A stretch of DNA of 36,643 bases, from contig CALRIA010000005.1 of the NCBI GenBank assembly GCA_943359595.1, positions 1 to 36,643 on the forward strand, given 5' to 3'. The notes below the pieces were generated by a model that was not told the origin of the DNA, made no database searches, and saw nothing but the letters and a program-made list of their open reading frames with translations. Positions 10,819-35,309 of the stretch are shown here, piece by piece. This stretch comes from Candidatus Magasanikiibacteriota bacterium. GTDB taxonomy: Bacteria; Patescibacteriota; Patescibacteriia; Magasanikbacterales; GWA2-37-8. The number at the start of each line of letters is the position of its first letter. Positions within the stretch are counted from its first letter, which is position 1. Position numbers and translations under genes: made by a program.

Positions 10819-11223
10819 TTATTCAATGGGTTCAAGATAAAATTTTTCTTCTTCATCTTCTGGCAAACCAGACAAGTTTTCTTCACCAAAAGTTTGCTCA
10901 ACTTGACCAACTTCAAGTGGAATATTGGTTGTTTCCAAAACTGGTTCTGAAATTTTTTCTACTTCTTTTTTCGTATTATCTTCCCAACCTGGGATAGGCT
11001 GTCGTTTTTTTTGATCCTGCCAACGAGAAATATCATGGTTTAATTTATTTAACATATCCTCTTCTTCCAAGTTCTCTAGACAAGAAGTGTCGTTTAATAA
11101 GCTTTCATATTCATTTAGATTCATCAAGACCATGGTTTCGTCAGTTTCCTTATCCATTATTACAAACCTATCCCCAGTACGGCGAACTAATTTGATAATA
11201 CGATCCAATTGATTTTGTTTCAT
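10819..11223 (-). CDS. Hypothetical protein; Phd/YefM-like N-terminus and acidic C-terminus
   Basis: 134-aa ORF with its own TTGACT/TATAAT promoter (11247-11274). RFVIMDK...MVLMNLNEYESL resembles the Phd fold signature. Confidence 0.65.
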   Translation of the reverse strand: MKQNQLDRIIKLVRRTGDRFVIMDKETDETMVLMNLNEYESLLNDTSCLENLEEEDMLNKLNHDISRWQDQKKRQPIPGWEDNTKKEVEKISEPVLETTNIPLEVGQVEQTFGEENLSGLPEDEEEKFYLEPIE

Positions 11224-25042: not shown

Positions 25043-25075
25043 AACACCCCTCATTATTGAGGGGTGTTTTTTTTA
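25043..25075 (+). terminator. rplA intrinsic terminator
   Basis: AACACCCCTCA-ttat-TGAGGGGTGTT followed by a T-run. Confidence 0.8.
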
Positions 25076-25083
25076 AAAAATTT

Positions 25084-26097
25084 ATGCTGATTTTTGCAAC
25101 TGTTGGCCACACTACACTTGCCGAAGACCAAATTAGAAAAATTGTATTAGCTGGTGCTGATGTAATTAGATATAATTTTGCTTATCGAAATATAAGTGAA
25201 AATATTGAATTGGTATGTACGGCTCAAAGAATAATCGAAGAATTAAATTCCTCAGCGCAAATTTTAATAGACTTTCCTCTAAACAAAATTCGTCTAGGAG
25301 ATTTTGATATAAAAATTTTTGCAGTAAGAGAAAATCAAGAATTAATTCTAAAGTCCGCGCCTTTCTCGCCAAATTGTTATGAATATATCCCGGTCGACAC
25401 TCAATTACTGGGACAAAAAGTATACGTTGATCAAACTATAACCATTGGGGATGGTGAAATATCGATGCAAGTGATTGAAATTTTAAATACCGACACCATT
25501 AAAGTAAAGATTTTAAATAATGGAGTAATAAATTACATCAAAACATTCAATTGCAAATATCGAATTTCTGAAGAAGTTATCTTAAAATTATACGACGAAA
25601 CGCTAGAAAAAATTAGTATGATCGGGCCTGACAAAATTGCCATATCTTTTATTAATTTTGAAACTAATGAAAAAATAAAACAATTAATTTTATCGAAAAA
25701 CATACAACCAAAAGTAATTATTAAAATTGAATACGGAATAAATGAAAGTGAACTAGAAAAAATTTGTTTAGATAATTTCTACAACGCTATTCTGATTGAT
25801 CGAGGTGAACTAGGAGTAAATGAACCGTTTGAAAAATTAGGTTATTATCAAGATTTAATCATCAAAACCGCCAAAAAATTCAATAAACGAATAATAGTAT
25901 CGACCCAAATTTTGGAAAGTACGATTTATAATTATATACCGTCACGCTCAGATATCAATGATTTAACTGAAATTATTCGCTCTGGAGTTGATGGAATAAT
26001 GTTTTGTATGGAAACATCTTCCTCCATACGGCCAGCTTATCCCATTTCAGTTGCAAAAAAAATTATTTTGGAAATACAGAGTCATAAAAAAATATGA
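25084..26097 (+). CDS. Divergent pyruvate kinase-like protein (A barrel + B domain; no C-terminal allosteric domain)
   Basis: IFATVG, GADVIRYNF, IIKIE, IDRGELGV, IVSTQILES, PSRSDINDL..GVDGIMF..ET map onto PK motifs. ATG 25084, because the TTG at 25057 lies in the terminator. Confidence 0.85.
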   Translation: MLIFATVGHTTLAEDQIRKIVLAGADVIRYNFAYRNISENIELVCTAQRIIEELNSSAQILIDFPLNKIRLGDFDIKIFAVRENQELILKSAPFSPNCYEYIPVDTQLLGQKVYVDQTITIGDGEISMQVIEILNTDTIKVKILNNGVINYIKTFNCKYRISEEVILKLYDETLEKISMIGPDKIAISFINFETNEKIKQLILSKNIQPKVIIKIEYGINESELEKICLDNFYNAILIDRGELGVNEPFEKLGYYQDLIIKTAKKFNKRIIVSTQILESTIYNYIPSRSDINDLTEIIRSGVDGIMFCMETSSSIRPAYPISVAKKIILEIQSHKKI

Positions 26098-27170
26098 CAC
26101 CTACAAAAAAAGTGCCCTCAATAACTGAATGGCTTTCGGAAATTAATTACAAACAACTGGACGTCTTTAGGCGCGAAGATGCCGAAAAACGCGATCGTTT
26201 AGAATTGTTAAACAAGATTATTGGATTACCCTATTTAAAAGCTTATAAATTTACACTATCTGAAGTGCTAAATCATAGTATACGATTTGAAAAATTATTA
26301 TCTGCATCTGGTAATACTAAATTTTTATTTAAACTTTTACCAACTTATTCAAAATTACCAAAATTACGTACTAGAGATAAAAATTTAAAACATTGTGTAC
26401 AGTGGCTAAAAAAACAGAAAATTGACGACGATAAATATAAAATTGAAATAGTCCCAATAGATAAAAATGAAAAAAATTCTGCGGTTTTTTGTGTTAACAA
26501 AAATGGAATATGGGGAGAGATAATCAACGGTCCAATTTGGAATTTCTCTAAAGGTACTTACAAAAAACAACCAACAATATTTTCTTTTGATTTTAAAAAT
26601 TGGTATTTTTCTAGTCATAACAAATTGACTGAAAAATTTATTAAAAAAGCGATCAAAAAAATAAAAATAAAAAAAAATAGCCAAGTTAAAGCCCTTAAAA
26701 ATAAAATCGATATTGAAATTACCTCCCAAAATTATTTACAAGGATACTTTGAATGTATCCAACGAAGTAATGATTTACTTTTTGTTGATTACAACCGACG
26801 TTTATTCAAAATAATTGAAAAATCGCTAACAACTATTTCGCATGGGATTGATCTGTTGCACGGAACCTGTCTAGGCCCAGGAAAGGCTACTGGCAAAGCC
26901 GTGATAATCAAAAATTTAAATAAAAAAATAAATTTCCCAAATGGCTCAATTATAATATGTCACACCGCAAATTTTGAAATGTTACCTTATCTTAAAAAAG
27001 CTAGCGGCATAATAACTGAACGTGGTGCTGTGTTATCCCATGCAGCTATTGTCTGTAGAGAATTAAATATGCCATTTGTAGCCCATGTAAAAAACGCTAC
27101 TGAAAAGATAAAAAATGGTCAAAAAATTTTTATTGATGCTGATAAAGGGATTGTTAAAATAATAAAATAG
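26094..27170 (+). CDS. Phospho-His swivel (PEP-utiliser mobile) domain protein with PPDK/PEPS-like ATP-grasp-type N-terminus, paralog 1
   Basis: C-terminal PGKATGKA...GIITERGAVLSHAAIVCRELNMP...IDADKG; ATGA overlap with the PK-like stop. Confidence 0.85.
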   Translation: MTPTKKVPSITEWLSEINYKQLDVFRREDAEKRDRLELLNKIIGLPYLKAYKFTLSEVLNHSIRFEKLLSASGNTKFLFKLLPTYSKLPKLRTRDKNLKHCVQWLKKQKIDDDKYKIEIVPIDKNEKNSAVFCVNKNGIWGEIINGPIWNFSKGTYKKQPTIFSFDFKNWYFSSHNKLTEKFIKKAIKKIKIKKNSQVKALKNKIDIEITSQNYLQGYFECIQRSNDLLFVDYNRRLFKIIEKSLTTISHGIDLLHGTCLGPGKATGKAVIIKNLNKKINFPNGSIIICHTANFEMLPYLKKASGIITERGAVLSHAAIVCRELNMPFVAHVKNATEKIKNGQKIFIDADKGIVKIIK

Positions 27171-27177
27171 TCTAATT

Positions 27178-28260
27178 ATGAGCATCACCGAAATTATCGA
27201 CAATCAAATGCCTTCTTTGACTGAATGGTTAGAGAAAATTAATTTCATCCAAACTGAAGAATTTCGCAAGGAAGACAACACCAAACGCGATCGTTTGGAA
27301 ATTTTATTTCAAGAAATTGGTTTGGAATATGATCGCCCCGCCAGATTTATGGCCAGAGATTTAAAAGACAACACTTCAATATTTAAAAATTACTTAGATC
27401 AAGCTGGTGAGGAACAATGTGCTTTGCGTTTAATTCCAATTTCTGCTGGATTGCCAAAATTACGAGTACGTGGAAAAACTCTCAGAGAAAATTTGGTATG
27501 GTTTAAAAATCAAGATATTGATGCCGAACAATACAAAGTAGAAGTTGTGCCACACAGTGATTATTGCAAATATTCCGCTACTTTCCTAATTAACAATCAC
27601 GGTATTTTAGGAGAAATTATAAAGGGATTGCATTGGCAATTAACTCAAGGATTACATCAGGAACCGCCCATTTATTTTAGCTTTGATTTTCATAATTGGA
27701 CATTTTCTGCACTAGACAAAGAAGCTGAAAGATGGATTAAACAGGCAGTTGCCTCCCTTATAATCACACCAGACAAACAAAAAGATATCCAGAAAAAATT
27801 TGAGGCGGAATTTACCAGCCAAGGATATTTAAAAGGGTATTTTGAATTTGTTGTTTGGCCAAATGATAAAATTTTATTTATCGATTATAACCGTACTATT
27901 TATCGTTCATTAAAAGATGTTAAATCAAACGCTATACACTCAGACCTAGAATTATCAGGCATCTGCGCTAGCGCTGGAAAAGTATCTGGCACAGCTAAGA
28001 TAGTTTTGGATCCAAAAAATACTGACTTTTCTGAAGGAGATATTTTGATTTGTGCGATGACTCTAATTGATTATGTGCCACTCATGAAAAAAGCGGCTGG
28101 AATCATCACCGAACAAGGCAATATTTTGTCCCATGCGGCCATTGTCGCGCGTGAATTACACAAACCTTGTCTGGTGGGGGTAAAAAATGTATTGAGACAA
28201 ATTAAAAGCGGACAAAAGATTACTTTAGACGCAGACAATAGCCAGATAATTTTGAACTAA
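27178..28260 (+). CDS. Phospho-His swivel domain protein, paralog 2
   Basis: GIITEQGNILSHAAIVARELHKP; colinear with paralog 1 (PSxTEWL, KRDRLE, LPKLR, GEIIxG, FSFDFxNW, GYFE, DYNR). Confidence 0.87.
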   Translation: MSITEIIDNQMPSLTEWLEKINFIQTEEFRKEDNTKRDRLEILFQEIGLEYDRPARFMARDLKDNTSIFKNYLDQAGEEQCALRLIPISAGLPKLRVRGKTLRENLVWFKNQDIDAEQYKVEVVPHSDYCKYSATFLINNHGILGEIIKGLHWQLTQGLHQEPPIYFSFDFHNWTFSALDKEAERWIKQAVASLIITPDKQKDIQKKFEAEFTSQGYLKGYFEFVVWPNDKILFIDYNRTIYRSLKDVKSNAIHSDLELSGICASAGKVSGTAKIVLDPKNTDFSEGDILICAMTLIDYVPLMKKAAGIITEQGNILSHAAIVARELHKPCLVGVKNVLRQIKSGQKITLDADNSQIILN

Positions 28261-28280: not shown

Positions 28281-28320
28281 AAAAATAGCTATTGGCAACG
28301 GTGGCTATTTTTGTTAAAAT
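28281..28320 (+). promoter_or_regulatory. Terminator hairpin overlapping the promoter of the dTTP operon
   Basis: AAAAATAGCTATTG-gcaa-CGGTGGCTATTTTT hairpin; TTGGCA (28292-28297), 17 nt, TGt-TAAAAT (28315-28320). Confidence 0.55.
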
Positions 28321-28346: not shown

Positions 28347-28814
28347 ATGTTAACAGCAAGAGAAAATGCTATTTCTTGGGATGAATGCTTTATGCGTATG
28401 GCCCATGTGATTTCCGAGAGATCAAAAGACCCTAGCACCCAGGTAGGAGCCGTAATTGCCGATATCCAGAACGTGGTATTAGGATTAGGCTATAACGGTT
28501 TTCCACGTGGCATTGAAAGCGATCAACTACCTTGGGAACGTGAAGGAACTTTTGCAGATACTAAATACGCTTATGTTTGTCACGCCGAAGAAAATGCTAT
28601 TTACAACGCCAACCAAAAAGTGCACGGCTCCAAAATTTATTGCACCTTATTCCCTTGTAATGAATGTGCTAAAACCCTAATCCAAAATGGCATCACCGAA
28701 GTGATTTACGAAAATGATAAGTACCACGACGTGGACACCTTCGTAGCCGCTCGTCGTTTGCTAGATGCCGCTGGAATTAAATACCGCCAATACCTATCTG
28801 ATTCGTCTAAATAA
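28347..28814 (+). CDS. dCMP deaminase (ComEB/DCTD family)
   Basis: WDECFM, RSKDPSTQVGA, GYNG, HAEENA, PCNEC. Confidence 0.95.
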   Translation: MLTARENAISWDECFMRMAHVISERSKDPSTQVGAVIADIQNVVLGLGYNGFPRGIESDQLPWEREGTFADTKYAYVCHAEENAIYNANQKVHGSKIYCTLFPCNECAKTLIQNGITEVIYENDKYHDVDTFVAARRLLDAAGIKYRQYLSDSSK

Positions 28815-28825
28815 ACAACAACCCT

Positions 28826-29377
28826 ATGGCAAAATTAATTATTGGCATCGTTGGAGAAAATGCCGCCGGCAAAACGACAGCGACTGAATATTTAAAAAAC
28901 AAATTCAACGCCGTTACTTTTCGATTTTCTGATATGCTCTATGATATCTTAAAAAGAATGTATATCGAACCAAACAGAGGCAATTTACAGATGATTTCCA
29001 CAATTTTGCGCCAAAATTTTGGCGACGATATCATGTCCAAAGTTATCGCTAAAGATGCCAAAAATTCCACCTCGGAAATTATTATTACTGAAGGTGTACG
29101 TCGACCAAGTGACGTCCCCTATCTCAAAGAATTGTCCAACTTTATTCTAATTTACATCAAAGCCGACGAACAAACACGTTTTTCCCGCTTGGCTAATCGT
29201 GGTGAAAAACCAGACGATGCCATCAAAACTTGGGAAGATTTTCAGAAAGAAGGTTTACAAGAATCAGAACAACAAATTTTGGCGATTGCGCAAACTGCTA
29301 ATTCCACAATTGACAATAACGGCTCTCTTGAAGAGACTTATGCCCAGTTAGATAAAATTGTTGCTCAATATTTATAA
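28826..29377 (+). CDS. P-loop kinase (dephospho-CoA-kinase-like / possible dNMP kinase)
   Basis: IIGIVGENAAGKTT Walker A, EGVRR, RFSRL..R, IDNNGSLEE. Confidence 0.8.
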   Translation: MAKLIIGIVGENAAGKTTATEYLKNKFNAVTFRFSDMLYDILKRMYIEPNRGNLQMISTILRQNFGDDIMSKVIAKDAKNSTSEIIITEGVRRPSDVPYLKELSNFILIYIKADEQTRFSRLANRGEKPDDAIKTWEDFQKEGLQESEQQILAIAQTANSTIDNNGSLEETYAQLDKIVAQYL

Positions 29378-29378
29378 T

Positions 29379-29813
29379 ATGCAAGTTTTAATCAAGCGCC
29401 TCGATAAATCTCTCCCCCTCCCCCGGTATCATACTTCCGGTTCGGTAGCTTTTGATTTTTCAGCGCGCATTGAATCTACTGTGAGGCCAAAACAAATCGC
29501 TCGCATTCCCTCAGGATTAATTATTGGTACACCAACTGGCTATGTCCTCACTTTAGCTGCCCGCTCCAGTTTGGCCGCCAAAAAAGGCCTAATGTTGGCC
29601 AATGGTATTGGGACTATCGACAGTGACTACTGCGGACCAGAAGACGAAATTTTGATTTCTGTATACAATTTTACTGATCAAATTGTCACTGTAGAAAAAG
29701 GCGAACGCATCGCTCAAGGTATGTTTTTAAAAGTAGAACAAGGGGAATGGAAAGAAGTCGATGAGATTACCGAAAAATCCCGTGGTGGTTTTGGTAGTAC
29801 GGGAGATAAATAA
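29379..29813 (+). CDS. dut: dUTP diphosphatase (trimeric)
   Basis: GSVAFD, ARSSL, GTIDSDYCG, GERIAQ, RGGFGSTG. ATG at 29379. Confidence 0.96.
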   Translation: MQVLIKRLDKSLPLPRYHTSGSVAFDFSARIESTVRPKQIARIPSGLIIGTPTGYVLTLAARSSLAAKKGLMLANGIGTIDSDYCGPEDEILISVYNFTDQIVTVEKGERIAQGMFLKVEQGEWKEVDEITEKSRGGFGSTGDK

Positions 29814-29817
29814 ATAT

Positions 29818-32490
29818 ATGTCAAAAGAATTTGGTAATTTATCACAAGCAATAGAAACGCAAAGAGAAACTGGTGTAATGACTGACCAATGGTTATTGCC
29901 TAAATTTTTTCAATTAACAAAAGGAACTGAAGTTCATTTAGTAGCTACCGACAGCTTTATCGGTAAATCAAAAGACCAATACAATGCCGCCTGGTTATCA
30001 CGTGAATTAATTCAAAATTTTGTTGACCACAACCCAGACGATCAAGGAACTTTAAATGGGGTTGAAATTAGCACTGAAGATTTACCAGCGTCAAAAGACA
30101 TGCCTAAGGGCGGAAAAAGAATTATTATTAAAGGAAATTGGAAATTTGAAAATCCTACTGGTGTTATTAGCCCTCATTCTGAAAAACCCGCTGATACAGA
30201 AACGGCGGGTGGAAATGGTATTGGACTAAAACAATCTGCTTTAAGAATGTTAAGAGATTTTGGAGCAAAAAAATTTGAGATTGAAGGTGAAGGTTGGAAA
30301 GTAGATTATGGGATGATTAAAAAAGATGAAGTCAATCAAACTATTCAAGACAATCTACCAGAAATGGAATCTGCCCGAGTCCGCCATGATTGGTTGGTAG
30401 CAGATCTATCAAAAACTAAAAACAGTGGGACCAATTCTTATGTGATTGAAACAGACAACCAAGAATTAATAGCGTCTTTATCAGAACTTCCAAATCTAGG
30501 CGTCTCTGAAAAAAATAAATATCTGCAAGATTTAGATTTAAATGTAAAGACTGGTGATAAAAAATCCATTGCTTTAAAATGGCTACAACCAGAAGAAAAA
30601 GGACGTCTCTTTTTAAATGGACAGGTGATGAATTATGAAAAAAACGGCACTAGTTCAGACGATTATTGGCGTGGGCCAGAAGGTCTATCTATTTCTTTAA
30701 AAGGAGTGAAATACAAGATGAGCATCGACCGACCGCCGGTAGATAAATTCGATTTTGGCAGTTATTTGGAAAATTTTGTAAAAAAACTTTCCACTCAACA
30801 GCTTACTGAACAACTCCAAAAATCCTACCATTTGTGGCGCGGGACTCTCATGCCTTCATATGCCAGAAAAGGATTTATGGTGGCAGTAGATAGTATGGTG
30901 GAAGCTTTACAAAAAAGAAAAGACTACACATCAAGCCAATTTAAAGAATTATTTCCTGAAAAATTATTAGCGAATGATACTGGTTTAGAAAAAAAAGATA
31001 TTCAAAAATTAGAAAAAGATGGTTATGTCGTATGTGATGAAATATTTGGGAAAATTGGCATGGAAAAAGCCAGCCAAATTTTAAAACCAGACGAGTCGTT
31101 AGTGAGAGAGAAACGTCCGGATAATCCATCTGGACAAATCGAAAAATTGGCTGAGGAAATGGGTTTACAGGTTTATTTCCAAGAATACGGGCACATTAGC
31201 ACTTCTGATTTTATAAATAAAATCGATGAATTTGTAAAAAAATATAGCGCCAAAATAGAAATAACCAAAGAAGGAATCAAAATTATCATCCCAGAAGGGG
31301 TTCACACTGAAACATTATACGCACAGATCCCCTACCCTAAAAAAAATCTGGAGCAAAAATTAATTTTTGAATTACGCAGCTTAATTAAACACGGACTACA
31401 AAATGAATTATTCGATGAGCATTCCCATACCACAAACGCCGATGTGGTAACTACTTATAAATCAGACATATCTTTTGCCTGTGGAGATCGTGAACAAACT
31501 CTAATAATTCGCAATACTCGTATTAGACCAAAAAAATATACTAAAGAAAAATTATTACTAGAGGCAACCTTGTTATTTGGCAAAAAACTAACGGCTGAAC
31601 AAATTGAATCTTTTTTAAAAAATATTAACCAATCAACTAAGATAACCCCTGCAAAAACAGATTCAATCAAGGCACGGTTGGATTTGGCATCTCATACCAA
31701 CATCCCTTCAGCCTATCAAAAACCAAACTGGCTCAAGCGTACCTTGGTAGTTTTGGGCATTGGAGCGATTGGCGCTATTGGGACTTATGAAGCATCACAA
31801 CCAACAGGAGTGGCAGCCATAAAAAAATCCTCAGATGATGACCAAACTTTAAAAAAAATAGAGCCTGTTGGAACCACAATACAACAAACAAATATCGACC
31901 AAATAAAAAAACAAAAAGAGGCTAATGAAAAATTTAGTAGCTTTATAAATCAACACCCAAATGCTCTAATTGGTGGATCTGATTTTGGCAAAACCGAAAT
32001 TACATCAGTTAGAAAACACACTGCTACTGTCGAATCTGCTTCAACAGTTAGAGATACTGAACAAAAATCTGATCAACACGAAGAAACAGATCAAATAGAG
32101 GATTTTGAACCACTAACAGAAATTACTGTCAAACAAACCGAGCAACTTAAAGTGTTAACCGCCTATTTAGAATTAACCACAGATGCAAAACTATCAGGAA
32201 AAAAATTCTTTATTTTTAAAGGAAAAGGGGCATTAGGAGTAAACCACGGAAAACAATTCATCGGTTTACACGAAGCCATGTTTGAAACCAATTTTTTTGA
32301 AGCTTTATCAACTTTGATTCACGAAGCTGCGCATTGTGACCCCGAGGCAAACGGTCACGACAATCAATTTCGTCACACTATGCAAGACATGTTCAGTGCC
32401 GCTTTAGAAAAAGAACACTTTGATGTCGATCCTAATTCTAAAGAATCCACTTTTAGAAAACGCTGGGAACAATTAAGATTAAATAAATAA
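29818..32490 (+). CDS. 890-aa protein: N-terminal GHKL-type ATPase, possible TM segment, C-terminal HExxH metallopeptidase-like domain
   Basis: RELIQNFVDH (N-box), GGNGIGLK (G2-box), LVVLGIGAIGAIG, TLIHEAAHCDPEANGHDNQF. ATG 29818 lies just after the dut stop. Confidence 0.75.
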   Translation: MSKEFGNLSQAIETQRETGVMTDQWLLPKFFQLTKGTEVHLVATDSFIGKSKDQYNAAWLSRELIQNFVDHNPDDQGTLNGVEISTEDLPASKDMPKGGKRIIIKGNWKFENPTGVISPHSEKPADTETAGGNGIGLKQSALRMLRDFGAKKFEIEGEGWKVDYGMIKKDEVNQTIQDNLPEMESARVRHDWLVADLSKTKNSGTNSYVIETDNQELIASLSELPNLGVSEKNKYLQDLDLNVKTGDKKSIALKWLQPEEKGRLFLNGQVMNYEKNGTSSDDYWRGPEGLSISLKGVKYKMSIDRPPVDKFDFGSYLENFVKKLSTQQLTEQLQKSYHLWRGTLMPSYARKGFMVAVDSMVEALQKRKDYTSSQFKELFPEKLLANDTGLEKKDIQKLEKDGYVVCDEIFGKIGMEKASQILKPDESLVREKRPDNPSGQIEKLAEEMGLQVYFQEYGHISTSDFINKIDEFVKKYSAKIEITKEGIKIIIPEGVHTETLYAQIPYPKKNLEQKLIFELRSLIKHGLQNELFDEHSHTTNADVVTTYKSDISFACGDREQTLIIRNTRIRPKKYTKEKLLLEATLLFGKKLTAEQIESFLKNINQSTKITPAKTDSIKARLDLASHTNIPSAYQKPNWLKRTLVVLGIGAIGAIGTYEASQPTGVAAIKKSSDDDQTLKKIEPVGTTIQQTNIDQIKKQKEANEKFSSFINQHPNALIGGSDFGKTEITSVRKHTATVESASTVRDTEQKSDQHEETDQIEDFEPLTEITVKQTEQLKVLTAYLELTTDAKLSGKKFFIFKGKGALGVNHGKQFIGLHEAMFETNFFEALSTLIHEAAHCDPEANGHDNQFRHTMQDMFSAALEKEHFDVDPNSKESTFRKRWEQLRLNK

Positions 32491-32493
32491 GAT

Positions 32494-33366
32494 ATGCAAG
32501 CCTACTTAGATATTGTAAAAAAAGTATTAGAACAAGGAGAAAGAAAAAGCAATCGTACTGGTGTTGATACTATCGCAACTGCGGGAGCAATCTTTGAACA
32601 TGATATGAGCAAAGGATTTCCTCTATTGACCACCAAAAAAATGCCATACAAGGTCATCGCTTCTGAATTAGAATTTTTTATCAAAGGCATCACCGATAAA
32701 AAATGGTTACAAGATCACAATAATCATATTTGGGACGAATGGGCCTATCCAAAAAAAGCACCCTATGGGCATGATGAAATATCCAAAAATCGTATGAAAG
32801 AAGAGCGCGATTTAGGACCAATCTACGGTTTTCAATGGCGCCATTTCAATGCGCCTTATTACAATTTTGAAGCCAACTATACCAACCAAGGTGTTGACCA
32901 GCTCAAACGTGTAATTGAAAAATTAAAAACTGACCCAAATGACCGTCGCATGATCGTAATGGCTTGGAACCCACTCGCTTTGCAAGATATGGCGCTACCT
33001 CCCTGCCACTATGCTTTCCAAATAACGGTGATTAATGGCAGGCTAAATTTACTATGGAACCAACGCTCTGTTGATACTATGCTTGGTTTGCCATTTAACA
33101 TCGCCAGCTACGCCACTTTATTACATCTATTAGCCAAAGAAGTCGGTTTGCAAGAAGGAAAATTAGTAGGTTTTTTGGCTGATGTTCATATCTATATAAA
33201 CCATATAGACGGCGCTAAAGAGCAGCTCACCCGCGATCCAAATCTCTATCCATTGCCAAAAATAGTTACAGAAAATTTTACTTCCATTTTTGATTGGCAA
33301 TGTGTTGATACTAAAATAGAAGGCTATCAAAATTATCCAAAGATTGAATTGGCTATCGCCATATAA
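32494..33366 (+). CDS. thyA: Thymidylate synthase
   Basis: RTGV, FPLLTTK, LGPIYGFQWR, MALPPCH, QRSVD..LGLPFNIASY, DVHIY. Confidence 0.98.
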   Translation: MQAYLDIVKKVLEQGERKSNRTGVDTIATAGAIFEHDMSKGFPLLTTKKMPYKVIASELEFFIKGITDKKWLQDHNNHIWDEWAYPKKAPYGHDEISKNRMKEERDLGPIYGFQWRHFNAPYYNFEANYTNQGVDQLKRVIEKLKTDPNDRRMIVMAWNPLALQDMALPPCHYAFQITVINGRLNLLWNQRSVDTMLGLPFNIASYATLLHLLAKEVGLQEGKLVGFLADVHIYINHIDGAKEQLTRDPNLYPLPKIVTENFTSIFDWQCVDTKIEGYQNYPKIELAIAI

Positions 33367-33369
33367 AAT

Positions 33370-33843
33370 ATGTCTTTTTCTCTCATTGCCGCCGTGGCTG
33401 AAAACAACTGTATTGGAAAAAATAATAAAATTCCTTGGAACATCCCGGAAGATTTTCAATACTTTAAAAAAATGACTTTAGGAAAAACTTGCCTAATGGG
33501 GCAGGCTACTTTTGAGTCTATTATTGGATATTTAGGCAAACCATTGCCAGGACGCCAAACTGTCGTGCTCACATTGGACAAAAACTACCAAGTGCCAGAA
33601 GGCGTGCGTATTTTTAACTCTCTTGATGGAGCTTTTAAACAGCTAAAAGCTGAAGATGTTTTTATCTGTGGTGGTGCTAGTATTTATCGACAAACCATTA
33701 ACCGAGTCGATACTTTATATATTACACAGATTTATCAATCCCCAGATGGCGATACTTTTTTCCCCGAAATTGATAAAAATGTCTGGAAAGAAACCACTCG
33801 TGAGGACCACGATAATTTTTCATTTGTGACTTATAAAAAATAA
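33370..33843 (+). CDS. folA: Dihydrofolate reductase
   Basis: IAAVAENNCIG..IPWNIPEDFQYFK, PLPGR, ICGGASIY, GDTFFP. Confidence 0.97.
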   Translation: MSFSLIAAVAENNCIGKNNKIPWNIPEDFQYFKKMTLGKTCLMGQATFESIIGYLGKPLPGRQTVVLTLDKNYQVPEGVRIFNSLDGAFKQLKAEDVFICGGASIYRQTINRVDTLYITQIYQSPDGDTFFPEIDKNVWKETTREDHDNFSFVTYKK

Positions 33844-33847
33844 AAAT

Positions 33848-34552
33848 ATGTTCATCATGATCGATGGTATTGATGGCAGTGGAAAGAGCACGGTAGTCTC
33901 ATCTTGGAAACATTATTTGTCTGATCAAGGCAATAAGATTTTTGATTTAAAAAATTATTTAAAAGAAAACGATCATTATCCGACAATACACGAGCTCAAT
34001 AACTATGATTTTATTTTTTCAGCTGAACCAACATTTACTGGTGTCGGCAAAGTAATTCGTGAAGAATTAATAAACCAAGAAAATCACTATTCGGCTGAAG
34101 CGATAACACAGGCATACTCATTGGACCGACTGATTCTTTACACTAAAATTATTATACCTCTGTTGCAGGCTGGCAAGCATATTATCCAGGACAGAGGGGT
34201 CAGCACTTCTTTGGCTTATCAGACTACTCAAAATTCTCATCTCACGTTAAAAGCCATTTCTGAATTAGAAGGAAATAAATTAGCGTTAAAAAATAATCCG
34301 GATCATTTAATACTATTGAAAGTAACTCCGAAAACCGCTATGCAGAGATTGTCTGGACGCCTAGAAAAACAAGATGACGTGATTTTTGAAAAAATGGATT
34401 TTTTGAAAAAAATATCTAATCAGTATGAATCAGAAGACTACAAAAATATTTTTAAAAAACTAGGCACACAAATACATTATTTGTCTGGTGAAGAAAAAAT
34501 TGATATAATGAATGAACAAGCTGTGAATTTATTAAAAAATATCTTAAAATAG
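33848..34552 (+). CDS. tmk: Thymidylate kinase
   Basis: FIMIDGIDGSGKST, EPT, IIQDRG..TSLAYQ, PD..ILL. Confidence 0.92.
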   Translation: MFIMIDGIDGSGKSTVVSSWKHYLSDQGNKIFDLKNYLKENDHYPTIHELNNYDFIFSAEPTFTGVGKVIREELINQENHYSAEAITQAYSLDRLILYTKIIIPLLQAGKHIIQDRGVSTSLAYQTTQNSHLTLKAISELEGNKLALKNNPDHLILLKVTPKTAMQRLSGRLEKQDDVIFEKMDFLKKISNQYESEDYKNIFKKLGTQIHYLSGEEKIDIMNEQAVNLLKNILK

Positions 34553-34553
34553 T

Positions 34554-35309
34554 ATGCTACTTTCAATATCAGAACTTATTCAACAAAGTTGGAATAATTA
34601 TTTAAAAACTTTACGACGCTTTGCGCCTTTTTTAGATGTATTATTAGCAAGTTTTATCATTCGTTATTTTTTAGGATTTGTCGGATTATATCTCAACGCT
34701 TATACCAAACTATCCAATCTTTCTGTAGACCTAAGCATTACATTGGTTATTATTGCTCTATCTTTTTTGGGCATCTGGACAAGTCTTGCTATTATCAAAT
34801 TAACTCAATTAGTCCAAAAAAATTCAACATTACCAAATTTTAAAGAAAGTTACATCAAAACTGTTCACTGTATTATTCCAACTTTTTTATTATCTTTATT
34901 GGTGGCTTTAATTATTATAACTGGTAGTATTTTATTTTTAATTCCAGGTATCATTTTTGCAATTTGGTATTATTATGTGAATTATATTATAATCTTTGAA
35001 GAACAAACTGGTTTAAATAATTTAAAAATTAGCAAACAATTGGTGGTTGGCCGCTGGTTTAGTATGGCTATTAGAATTATCATACCAAAAATTGTTTTTC
35101 TTATTGGCGTGATTATTTTAAGTATTTTAATACCAGAAATAATTATCAAAATATTTAATCCTTCGAGTGTTAAAATTACTCTTATTCTAGAACTAGTACG
35201 CGGTATTATTACAATTTTAACTTTACCCTTATTTATCTGGAGTGACACAATACTATATTTTAATGCCAAGGAAAATCCGATAGTTAACACCCAATCAGCT
35301 ACTAAATAA
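34554..35309 (+). CDS. Polytopic membrane protein (hypothetical)
   Basis: Five to six hydrophobic segments; GSILFLIPGIIFAIWY and SKQLVVGRWF pattern. Confidence 0.8.
   Translation: MLLSISELIQQSWNNYLKTLRRFAPFLDVLLASFIIRYFLGFVGLYLNAYTKLSNLSVDLSITLVIIALSFLGIWTSLAIIKLTQLVQKNSTLPNFKESYIKTVHCIIPTFLLSLLVALIIITGSILFLIPGIIFAIWYYYVNYIIIFEEQTGLNNLKISKQLVVGRWFSMAIRIIIPKIVFLIGVIILSILIPEIIIKIFNPSSVKITLILELVRGIITILTLPLFIWSDTILYFNAKENPIVNTQSATK

Follow-up and report, generated by a model that had tools for sequence, protein, structure and literature searches.

The contig CALRIA010000005.1 of a Candidatus Magasanikiibacteriota bacterium, analyzed over positions 1–36,643 (hereafter the window), carries at positions 25084–28260 three consecutive genes that encode a divergent pyruvate kinase (PK) barrel and two paralogous proteins ending in a phospho-His swivel domain. 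We read them as a variant of a split dikinase, in which the swivel would shuttle phosphate between a phosphoenolpyruvate (PEP)/pyruvate site on the PK-like protein and a nucleotide-type site, all within a dTTP operon; we give this reading slightly less than an even chance. The case for it is built on domain identities, predicted folds, gene linkage, protein fusions and the distribution among relatives, all of which were observed.

Gene 1 (25084–26097, plus strand) encodes a PK-like barrel of 337 amino acids (aa) with A and B domains and without the C domain. Gene 2 (26094–27170, plus strand; 358 aa) and gene 3 (27178–28260, plus strand; 360 aa) each encode an ATP-grasp-like N-terminal domain (N-domain; residues 1–250 in gene 3) followed by the swivel (about residues 258–360 in gene 3), and they represent what we call the gene-2 type and the gene-3 type. 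As a first-pass annotation of this DNA had stated, the three genes are tightly coupled: an ATGA overlap joins the gene 1 stop to the gene 2 start (26094–26097) and a 7-nt gap separates genes 2 and 3 (27171–27177), both readable directly in the sequence. A longer start candidate for gene 1, TTG at 25057, falls within the hairpin of an intrinsic terminator after rplA (25043–25068, plus strand; an 11-bp stem with six GC pairs, then a T-run, 16 nt before the gene 1 ATG), and 25084 is therefore the better start. With 787 relatives of gene 3 and 192 of gene 1 at E ≤ 0.001, the three are real, conserved genes.

PF00224, the PK barrel, was the only Pfam match of gene 1 (131.7 bits against a cut-off of 30). 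The protein aligns to positions 9–341 of the 477-position PK model PRK05826 and covers positions 5–337 of 476 in TIGR01064 (160.4 bits, cut-off 306.4); scans with Pfam and with full-length PK profiles gave no C-domain family match, and because the PRK05826 match stops at 341 of 477 we take gene 1 to consist of the A and B domains without the C domain. It contains the motifs IRYNFAY, IIKIE, STQ and DRGELGVN. The catalytic positions of PK we assume to be the R and N of RxNFSH, the K and E of KIE, the D of RGD and the T of ATQ; the gene 1 family retains R, N, K, E and T, while its RGD has become RGE. An alignment of about 120 PK-like relatives has the same R, N, K, E and T in common and retains the B domain, and it shows the family-wide changes ARGDLGVE to DRGELGVN, NFSH to NFSY (NFAY in gene 1 of the window), DLQGPKIR to DxPxNKIR and KGVN to KTFN. 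Judged by these alignments, the PK-like proteins are a conserved, functional and distinct PK subfamily. The description of gene 1 as a divergent PK barrel that lacks the C domain thus stands, now with a family signature of its own.

Genes 2 and 3 are, as first proposed, colinear paralogs ending in an LSHAAIV swivel domain: they share 42% identity across 346 residues (E 2e-98), and each has PF00391 as its sole Pfam match, at the C terminus (gene 2 residues 281–352, 76 bits; gene 3 residues 284–354, 81.9 bits; cut-off 23.1 bits). The LSHAAIV of both proteins matches the swivel motif G-x-x-S/T-H-A-A-I/V, and its His, the presumed phospho-carrier, is His316 in gene 2 (codon 27039–27041, plus strand, read off the alignment of genes 2 and 3) and His319 in gene 3 (codon 28132–28134, plus strand). 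Both His319 and Leu317 of gene 3 are invariant among 76 aligned sequences; the Leu replaces the regulatory Thr found two residues before the His in PEP synthase and pyruvate phosphate dikinase (PPDK), the TSH motif as defined in two studies (PMC9009071, PMC12167813). A Pfam scan found no match to the PEP-binding barrel PF02896 in either protein.

The N-domain had been likened to the domain with which PEP synthase and PPDK bind nucleotides (PPDK_N, PF01326), and here the predicted fold agreed while membership by sequence did not hold. PF01326 gave no Pfam match to the N-domain at E ≤ 0.1, and hhalign against a PPDK_N alignment of 60 sequences (the first 60 of 66 segments collected) returned probabilities of 0.9% and 0.2%. 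A search of the ESM Atlas produced leads below 0.9 only. A profile made from the N-domain itself scored gene 2 at 318.8 bits, and genes 2 and 3 were its only matches in their own genome. The AlphaFold2 model of full-length gene 3, built with 76 relatives, was confident (predicted local distance difference test [pLDDT] 92.2, predicted template modeling score 0.88), and Foldseek matched it to PPDK (E 4.9e-12), rifampin phosphotransferase (RPH) and ATP-grasp ligases. In VIA-align, residues 31–360 of the model aligned with residues 20–866 of RPH 5hv3 (Z 21.2, 290 residues), spanning the ATP-grasp and swivel domains and skipping the rifampin-binding domain. As the swivel could dominate such a full-length match, residues 1–251 were modeled alone with 47 relatives (pLDDT 90.9) and aligned against 48,161 chains. 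Only five chains reached Z ≥ 8, every one of them ATP-grasp: HpeI 9goj (Z 10.5, root-mean-square deviation 3.7, 185 residues aligned), residues 21–317 of RPH 5hv1 (Z 10.3), the isolated ATP-binding domain of RPH 5hv6 (Z 9.5) and a pair of synapsin C domains (Z 8.8 and 8.7). Maize PPDK followed at Z 7.9, and the lower rows among the 50 best were nearly all ATP-grasp enzymes. On these models the N-domain of genes 2 and 3 is an ATP-grasp fold, nearest to the ATP-grasp domains of dikinases, and the earlier guess of ATP-grasp-like N termini, for which this comparison of the isolated domain had been proposed as the check, holds because the model matches ATP-grasp chains.

Eighteen fused and 80 stand-alone cluster representatives alike preserve twelve residues of the N-domain (E32, D33, K36, R39, R84, R96, R98, E146, E223, D236, N238 and R239). 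A strand with an acidic residue, a D-x-N on the strand after it and a Lys/Arg cluster make up a pattern that presumably resembles the Mg-phosphate site of ATP-grasp enzymes. Given the conservation of such a charged set, the modeled N-domain most likely binds a nucleotide. A complex prediction that paired the PK-like alignment with the swivel part of gene 3 alone (residues 248–360) scored 0.00, a value that speaks neither for nor against binding.

Fusion proteins show which domains travel together. Searching 1.84 billion representatives with the N-domain profile recovered a small family of 263 clusters (50% identity) at E ≤ 0.001, most of its members about 360 aa long and nearly all from uncultivated ultra-small bacteria and archaea. 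When 23 long or atypical representatives were scanned with Pfam, 18 carried a true PPDK_N upstream of the N-domain, and 16 of these also showed PF00391, giving the order PPDK_N, N-domain, swivel (in P0277 at 17–323, 332–570 and 609–677); several had 2–6 swivel units behind a single PPDK_N. Since it lies between a true PPDK_N and the swivel in these chains, the N-domain occupies the acceptor position of RPH, and the statement that genes 2 and 3 have no acceptor-binding domain cannot stand in its original wording. In P0295 a PK barrel takes the place of PPDK_N, followed by the N-domain and the swivel, and P0241, found separately, has the same layout. The two are just 55% identical (over 721 residues), which argues that the PK-barrel fusion has been maintained in evolution and is no assembly slip. 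Other members carry an NTPase_I-T domain and a methyltransferase ahead of the N-domain and swivel (P0245), two copies of the N-domain (P0242) or, in a relative of gene 3, a fused dCMP deaminase (P0021). The family also includes giants of up to 2648 aa (P0313, P0254, P0256) with one PPDK_N and three to six swivel units per chain.

The survey of gene neighborhoods took in 42 loci from metagenomes, 6 full-length ones from genomes and 7 more from sampled genomes of the phylum; the scan of genome contigs was seeded on the swivel motif, with 6 of its 76 loci being full-length relatives, and the search for N-domain loci used a 7-row alignment. Two classes emerged. Class A has the order rplA, PK-like gene, one or two genes of the gene-2/3 types, dCMP deaminase, P-loop kinase and dUTPase, and where the DNA extends further, ThyA, DHFR, Tmk and a 251-aa unknown protein follow, with GatB next. 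In class B the relative lies within arrays of other swivel proteins and there is no PK-like gene. Two loci (L115, L146) were put in class A by eye because extended starts of their open reading frames (ORFs) broke the automatic distance test. All 23 class-A, operon-linked proteins formed one clade in a tree of 53 gene 2/3 rows (support 99 in the Shimodaira–Hasegawa-like approximate likelihood ratio test), and this clade splits into a gene-2 type and a gene-3 type of 11 rows each. Fragments and truncated ORFs (L033, L112, L133, L149, L152–154) and near-duplicates (L110 = L023, L122 = L121, L135 = L134) were left out of the trees, and L147 (= L146) out of the gene 2/3 tree only. Both types occur together only in the window and at L020, L113 and L141, and most genomes carry one; the earlier view of the two paralogs accordingly needs revision, the types being old and most relatives having just one of them.

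For each of the 18 clade-A proteins whose locus reaches at least 1.2 kb upstream, the gene immediately before it is PK-like, often with a 4-nt overlap. A PPDK_N ORF was present in the flanks of none of the 19 class-A loci, against 11 of 25 class-B loci. Neighborhood conservation looks different in the two classes: in clade A the PK-like gene and genes of the gene-2/3 types stay adjacent, whereas class-B relatives pair with stand-alone ATP-grasp subunits and do without a PK. The PK-like tree, too, divides by partner type, with one clade (6 rows, support 90) whose sole partner is the gene-3 type and clade II (support 95) pairing with the gene-2 type and mirroring the gene-2-type tree in its internal groups.

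Comparison within the genus indicates that these genes move together. Between the window and L159 the flanking genes are 88–95% identical and the PK-like genes just 51%, and the slot that follows the PK-like gene holds other genes; between the window and L020 the PK-like genes are 51% and the gene 2 proteins 40% identical, against 81–83% for topA, rplA and ThyA. Over all same-genus comparisons the PK-like gene and gene 2 range from 40 to 51% and the flanking genes from 77 to 95%. As this divergence far exceeds that of the flanks, we regard the PK-like gene and the slot as an exchanged cassette, which fits the low GC content of genes 1 and 2 (29.7% and 29.2%, against 35.7% for gene 3 and 37.4% for the window) and agrees with the earlier impression that the AT-richer genes 1 and 2 are a later addition. 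As a site, the PK-like gene and slot form a hot spot of exchange (L159, L165, L020), with PK-like genes 48–51% identical between genomes of one genus and a slot that contains genes 2/3, a CYTH gene with a deoxyribosyltransferase-like protein, or nothing.

The cassette stands at the head of a conserved operon with the order rplA, PK-like gene, slot, dCMP deaminase, kinase, dUTPase, ThyA, DHFR and Tmk. In the window, all on the plus strand, the downstream genes encode the dCMP deaminase (28347–28814; PF00383, 78.4 bits), a P-loop nucleotide/nucleoside kinase-like protein (28826–29377; NF006226 at 85 bits, under its cut-off, with weak dNK and DNMK matches), the dUTPase (29379–29813; NF001862 at 126 bits against a cut-off of 103) and ThyA, DHFR and thymidylate kinase (32494–34552; PF00303 at 321.8, PF00186 at 171.9 and PF02223 at 91.2 bits). 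This operon, the fusion to dCMP deaminase (P0021), the NTPase fusion (P0245) and the NUDIX and CYTH alternatives in the slot point to (deoxy)nucleotides, so the link to nucleotide metabolism suggested from the dTTP genes is upheld by the conserved operon, the deaminase fusion and the NUDIX or CYTH genes of relatives. A defense-system reading was dropped, PADLOC having given no match for genes 1–3; its matches of the deaminase and the kinase to a dCTP-deaminase defense model were discounted because both are conserved housekeeping neighbors.

Several features of this region deserve mention on their own account. A promoter-like site in the gap between gene 3 and the deaminase (28292–28320, plus strand; TTGGCA, 17 nt, TAAAAT, with TG upstream), a consensus match only, means that genes 1–3 and the deaminase block may be separate transcripts. 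Close relatives have two widely divergent types of dCMP deaminase: that of the window (28347–28814) is 31% identical to those at L020 and L141 and 76–90% identical to those at L159 and L116, a contrast that suggests a second replaced gene in the operon. Between dUTPase and ThyA lies a protein of about 890–909 aa with no Pfam family (29818–32490; ORF listed from 29761), which recurs at 70% identity in L116, whereas L155 and L157–L159 do not have it at that position. The Pfam-less 251-aa protein after Tmk (34554–35309; GC 27.2%) was found in all related operons seen (L020, L116, L155, L157–L160, L162, L166) and diverges fast (34–76% identity). Elsewhere in the window, a small ORF on the minus strand (10819–11223) gave a weak Phd/YefM antitoxin match of 21.6 bits, under the cut-off.

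The host is an ultra-small bacterium with a genome of 0.93 Mb in 51 contigs, 100% complete, and its relatives carry the source labels Magasanikbacteria or Patescibacteria. It encodes a canonical PK (479 aa, 354 bits), a complete PEP synthase (983 aa), an RPH-like protein (856 aa), a nucleoside diphosphate kinase (NDK) and a ribonucleotide reductase. PF00391 has 16 matches in the genome, and a single contig 2 array accounts for nine; C2:21861–22844 encodes a PPDK_N ATP-grasp protein that stands free (327 aa; PF01326, 323 bits). The array itself (L011, C2:8765–22844) consists of nine swivel proteins with diverse Pfam-less N termini, then a His-phosphatase-fold gene and then the free PPDK_N ATP-grasp gene. 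The NDK gene (C26:10665–11180, minus strand) shows two overlapping profile matches (model positions 1–89 and 59–134) in one 201-aa frame, which suggests an internal insertion or duplication.

We propose the following mechanism for the split-dikinase reading. Two-component small-molecule dikinases are described for HpeHI, CreHI and PpsAB (PMC12167813), and genes 2 and 3 would be the “substrate domain plus phospho-His swivel” subunits of a dikinase of that split kind (HpeH/RPH type). Their substrate domain would be a diverged ATP-grasp fold that binds a nucleotide, and in the class-A clade the PK-type barrel without C domain, gene 1, would replace the ATP-grasp donor gene that is the usual neighbor. 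The swivel His (gene 2 H316, gene 3 H319) would then carry a phosphoryl group back and forth, one station being the PEP/pyruvate site on the PK-like barrel and the other the nucleotide-type site on the N-domain of the swivel's own chain. What we infer here is the transfer of phosphate to or from the barrel, its direction and a nucleotide as the substrate. PEP might charge a (d)NMP or (d)NDP, or a dNTP such as dCTP might be converted to the dNMP with its phosphate saved as PEP, and either direction would fit the dTTP operon. Alone, the PK-like enzyme would probably act as a PEP-dependent (d)NDP kinase, and the genome's free-standing ATP-grasp subunit could probably charge the swivel proteins too. 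A fuller version has a PK barrel recruited as the PEP/pyruvate station, a diverged ATP-grasp domain binding deoxynucleotides, PEP/pyruvate linked through phospho-His to (d)NTP/(d)NMP interconversion, and two old paralog types serving different nucleotides; taken as a whole we consider this unlikely. It could run, for example, as an energy-saving reaction, dCTP + pyruvate → dCMP + Pi + PEP, feeding dCMP deaminase, after which the PEP would drive dTDP → dTTP on the PK-like protein, and the reverse, single-enzyme charging of dNMP from PEP, would be equally possible.

A presence survey of 61 related genomes bears on how firmly the parts belong together, with the PK-like type defined by scores of at least 275 bits or fragments thereof. 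The N-domain family occurred in 13 relatives, including 8 of 11 further genus members, 12 of 36 genomes of the family and none of the 24 from the order's other families; the PK-like type occurred in 20, all within the window's own family. The co-occurrence expected in the first-pass annotation is seen in 11 genomes that have both, set against nine that have the PK-like gene only and two, both class B, that have the N-domain only. At the PK-like-only loci the PK-like gene still heads the dTTP operon, and the slot is empty or holds a CYTH gene (80 bits) with a weak deoxyribosyltransferase-like match, a NUDIX gene (49.5 bits) or a 334-aa unknown protein. One of these nine genomes (G402, locus L165) has its PK-like gene split in two.

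A number of these and other observations weigh against a swivel that works with the PK-like barrel. Nine of the 20 PK-like genomes lack genes 2 and 3, tblastn detected no remnants of either gene at the PK-like-only loci, and PEP synthase was the sole match to both PF00391 and PF01326 in four of five such genomes tested (G404, G192, G413, G018). Because the PK-like protein persists there with no swivel partner but PEP synthase, it is self-sufficient for some function, and its retained B (lid) domain and R, K, E and T positions fit ordinary nucleotide-directed PK chemistry. A free-standing PPDK_N ATP-grasp protein (325–366 aa) was present in all five clade-A genomes tested and in the window's own genome; as every tested clade-A genome carries that subunit, ATP supplied through it could be the sole donor, and G423 has no swivel protein but PEP synthase and the clade-A one. 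The host is already equipped with a complete PEP synthase, a canonical PK and an NDK. Since conserved synteny extends to rplA as well, adjacency is by itself a weak argument. Finally, neither sequence nor profile comparison (Pfam, hidden Markov model, hhalign) detected a relation between the N-domain and PPDK_N, and the ligand of the N-domain is for that reason read from the fold and the conserved residues alone. The original idea that the barrel supplies in trans a domain missing from genes 2 and 3 is thus supported by the adjacency in 18 of 18 cases, the matching trees and the PK/N-domain/swivel fusions, and it is weakened by the nine genomes that keep the barrel without them.

Many of these observations would be explained if genes 2 and 3 formed an ordinary two-component dikinase, charged only by the free ATP-grasp protein (C2:21861–22844), with ATP phosphorylating the substrate as in HpeHI, and if the PK-like protein were an independent PEP-dependent (d)NDP kinase whose adjacency reflects only a shared role in nucleotide metabolism. 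We judge this alternative to be somewhat unlikely. All six relatives tested whose genomes encode “X + swivel” proteins have the free ATP-grasp protein, as does the window's own genome, and none of the four tested that lack such proteins has it; the G423 clade-A protein is the sole candidate partner for it there; outside clade A, swivel arrays come with PPDK_N ORFs (the 11 of 25 loci above), and the 18 fusions of PPDK_N to the N-domain, 16 with a swivel, together with the PK-like gene alone in 9 of 20 genomes, point the same way. Against this alternative stand two diverged fusions of PK barrel, N-domain and swivel, the strict adjacency (18 of 18 cases) and the 4-nt overlaps, the matching trees of the PK-like and gene-2-type proteins and their exchange as one cassette, and the position of the free ATP-grasp gene on a contig separate from genes 1–3.

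Genes 2 and 3 might instead be regulatory sensors that, on autophosphorylating or being phosphorylated, modulate the PK-like protein or other enzymes of the operon and pass no phosphate to a metabolite, which we hold to be quite improbable. There are precedents: the PEPut domain of Bacillus PykA controls PK activity and has a link to DNA replication (PMC9009071), which also speaks against the split-dikinase reading, and the mycobacterial VadK, a truncated PPDK with His autophosphorylation, interacts with metabolic enzymes (PMC13400623); the PK-like enzyme of relatives, moreover, works without genes 2 and 3. Yet an invariant Leu stands where the TSH motif has its regulatory Thr, the charged, catalytic-looking site of the N-domain is kept in 98 representatives, and the N-domain/swivel unit is one of several acceptor units behind one PPDK_N, an enzymatic layout. 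An earlier, stricter model of a split PEP synthase, in which the N-domain is the ATP site and the barrel phosphorylates pyruvate to make PEP for central metabolism, accounts for the ATP-grasp fold, swivel and PEP/pyruvate-type barrel and for the PK/N-domain/swivel fusions, but it is very improbable given the complete 983-aa PEP synthase of the same genome, the 18 fusions in which the N-domain follows a true PPDK_N and which would leave it two ATP sites and no acceptor, and a context of dTTP rather than gluconeogenesis.

If the split-dikinase reading is true, the PK barrel would be a third kind of donor/acceptor station in the toolkit of swivel-His dikinases, a Pfam-less ATP-grasp-like domain family of 263 clusters would be defined, and organisms with minimal genomes would wire central-carbon phosphoryl donors directly into their dNTP supply. 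The head of a housekeeping dTTP operon is, in addition, a hot spot of cassette exchange.

Literature searches, which covered papers without their supplements, found no published work on a module of the PK-like and gene 2/3 proteins, and its closest counterparts are systems that share some of its parts. HpeHI, CreHI, PpsAB and RPH (5hv1, 5hv3) likewise have a substrate domain followed by a C-terminal swivel His. The separate PPDK_N-type ATP-grasp subunit of the HpeHI type is present in the window's own genome too, fused relatives of genes 2 and 3 have the RPH order of ATP-grasp, middle domain and swivel, and the ATP-grasp domains of HpeI and RPH are the best structural matches of the N-domain. 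The middle domain of RPH and HpeH, however, is a helical substrate-binding domain, whereas its counterpart in genes 2 and 3 is an ATP-grasp-like fold; the rifampin-binding domain of RPH was not among the matches listed for the gene 3 model, which aligns through ATP-grasp and swivel only. The neighboring and sometimes fused partner differs as well, being a PK barrel here, and so does the setting, which is aromatic catabolism or antibiotic resistance for HpeHI and RPH and nucleotide metabolism for genes 1–3.

PEP synthase and PPDK (PPDK_N, PEP-utilizers, PEP-utilizers_C) have the same three stations, namely a nucleotide-type domain, a swivel His and a PEP/pyruvate barrel. Their barrel is PF02896, whereas gene 1 has a PK-type barrel (PF00224) that includes a B domain, and in genes 1–3 the stations are on separate chains, the nucleotide-type domain is not PF01326 by sequence and the regulatory Thr is absent. 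Gene 1 resembles the short barrel-only PKs (NCBIfam NF005234, a 352-position model) in its length and in lacking the C domain, but it matches that model at just 108 bits against a cut-off of 564, its family has signatures of its own, and the PK-like type is confined to one family of the Candidate Phyla Radiation among the 61 relatives searched. An association of PK with PF00391 is also seen in Firmicute PKs with a C-terminal PEPut domain (Geobacillus 2e28, Staphylococcus aureus 3t05 and Bacillus subtilis PykA; PMC9009071), and the gene 3 swivel matches Firmicute PEPut PK chains at Z 17. There the domain follows a full PK with its C domain and serves as a regulator; the PK of the present genes lacks that C domain, and their swivel comes after an ATP-grasp-like domain on a different chain. 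VadK (Rv1127c; PMC13400623) likewise has an ATP-grasp domain and then a swivel His with no barrel on the chain, but it keeps a true PPDK_N and autophosphorylates with ATP, whereas the N-domain of genes 2 and 3 is not PF01326 and in relatives lies downstream of a true PPDK_N.

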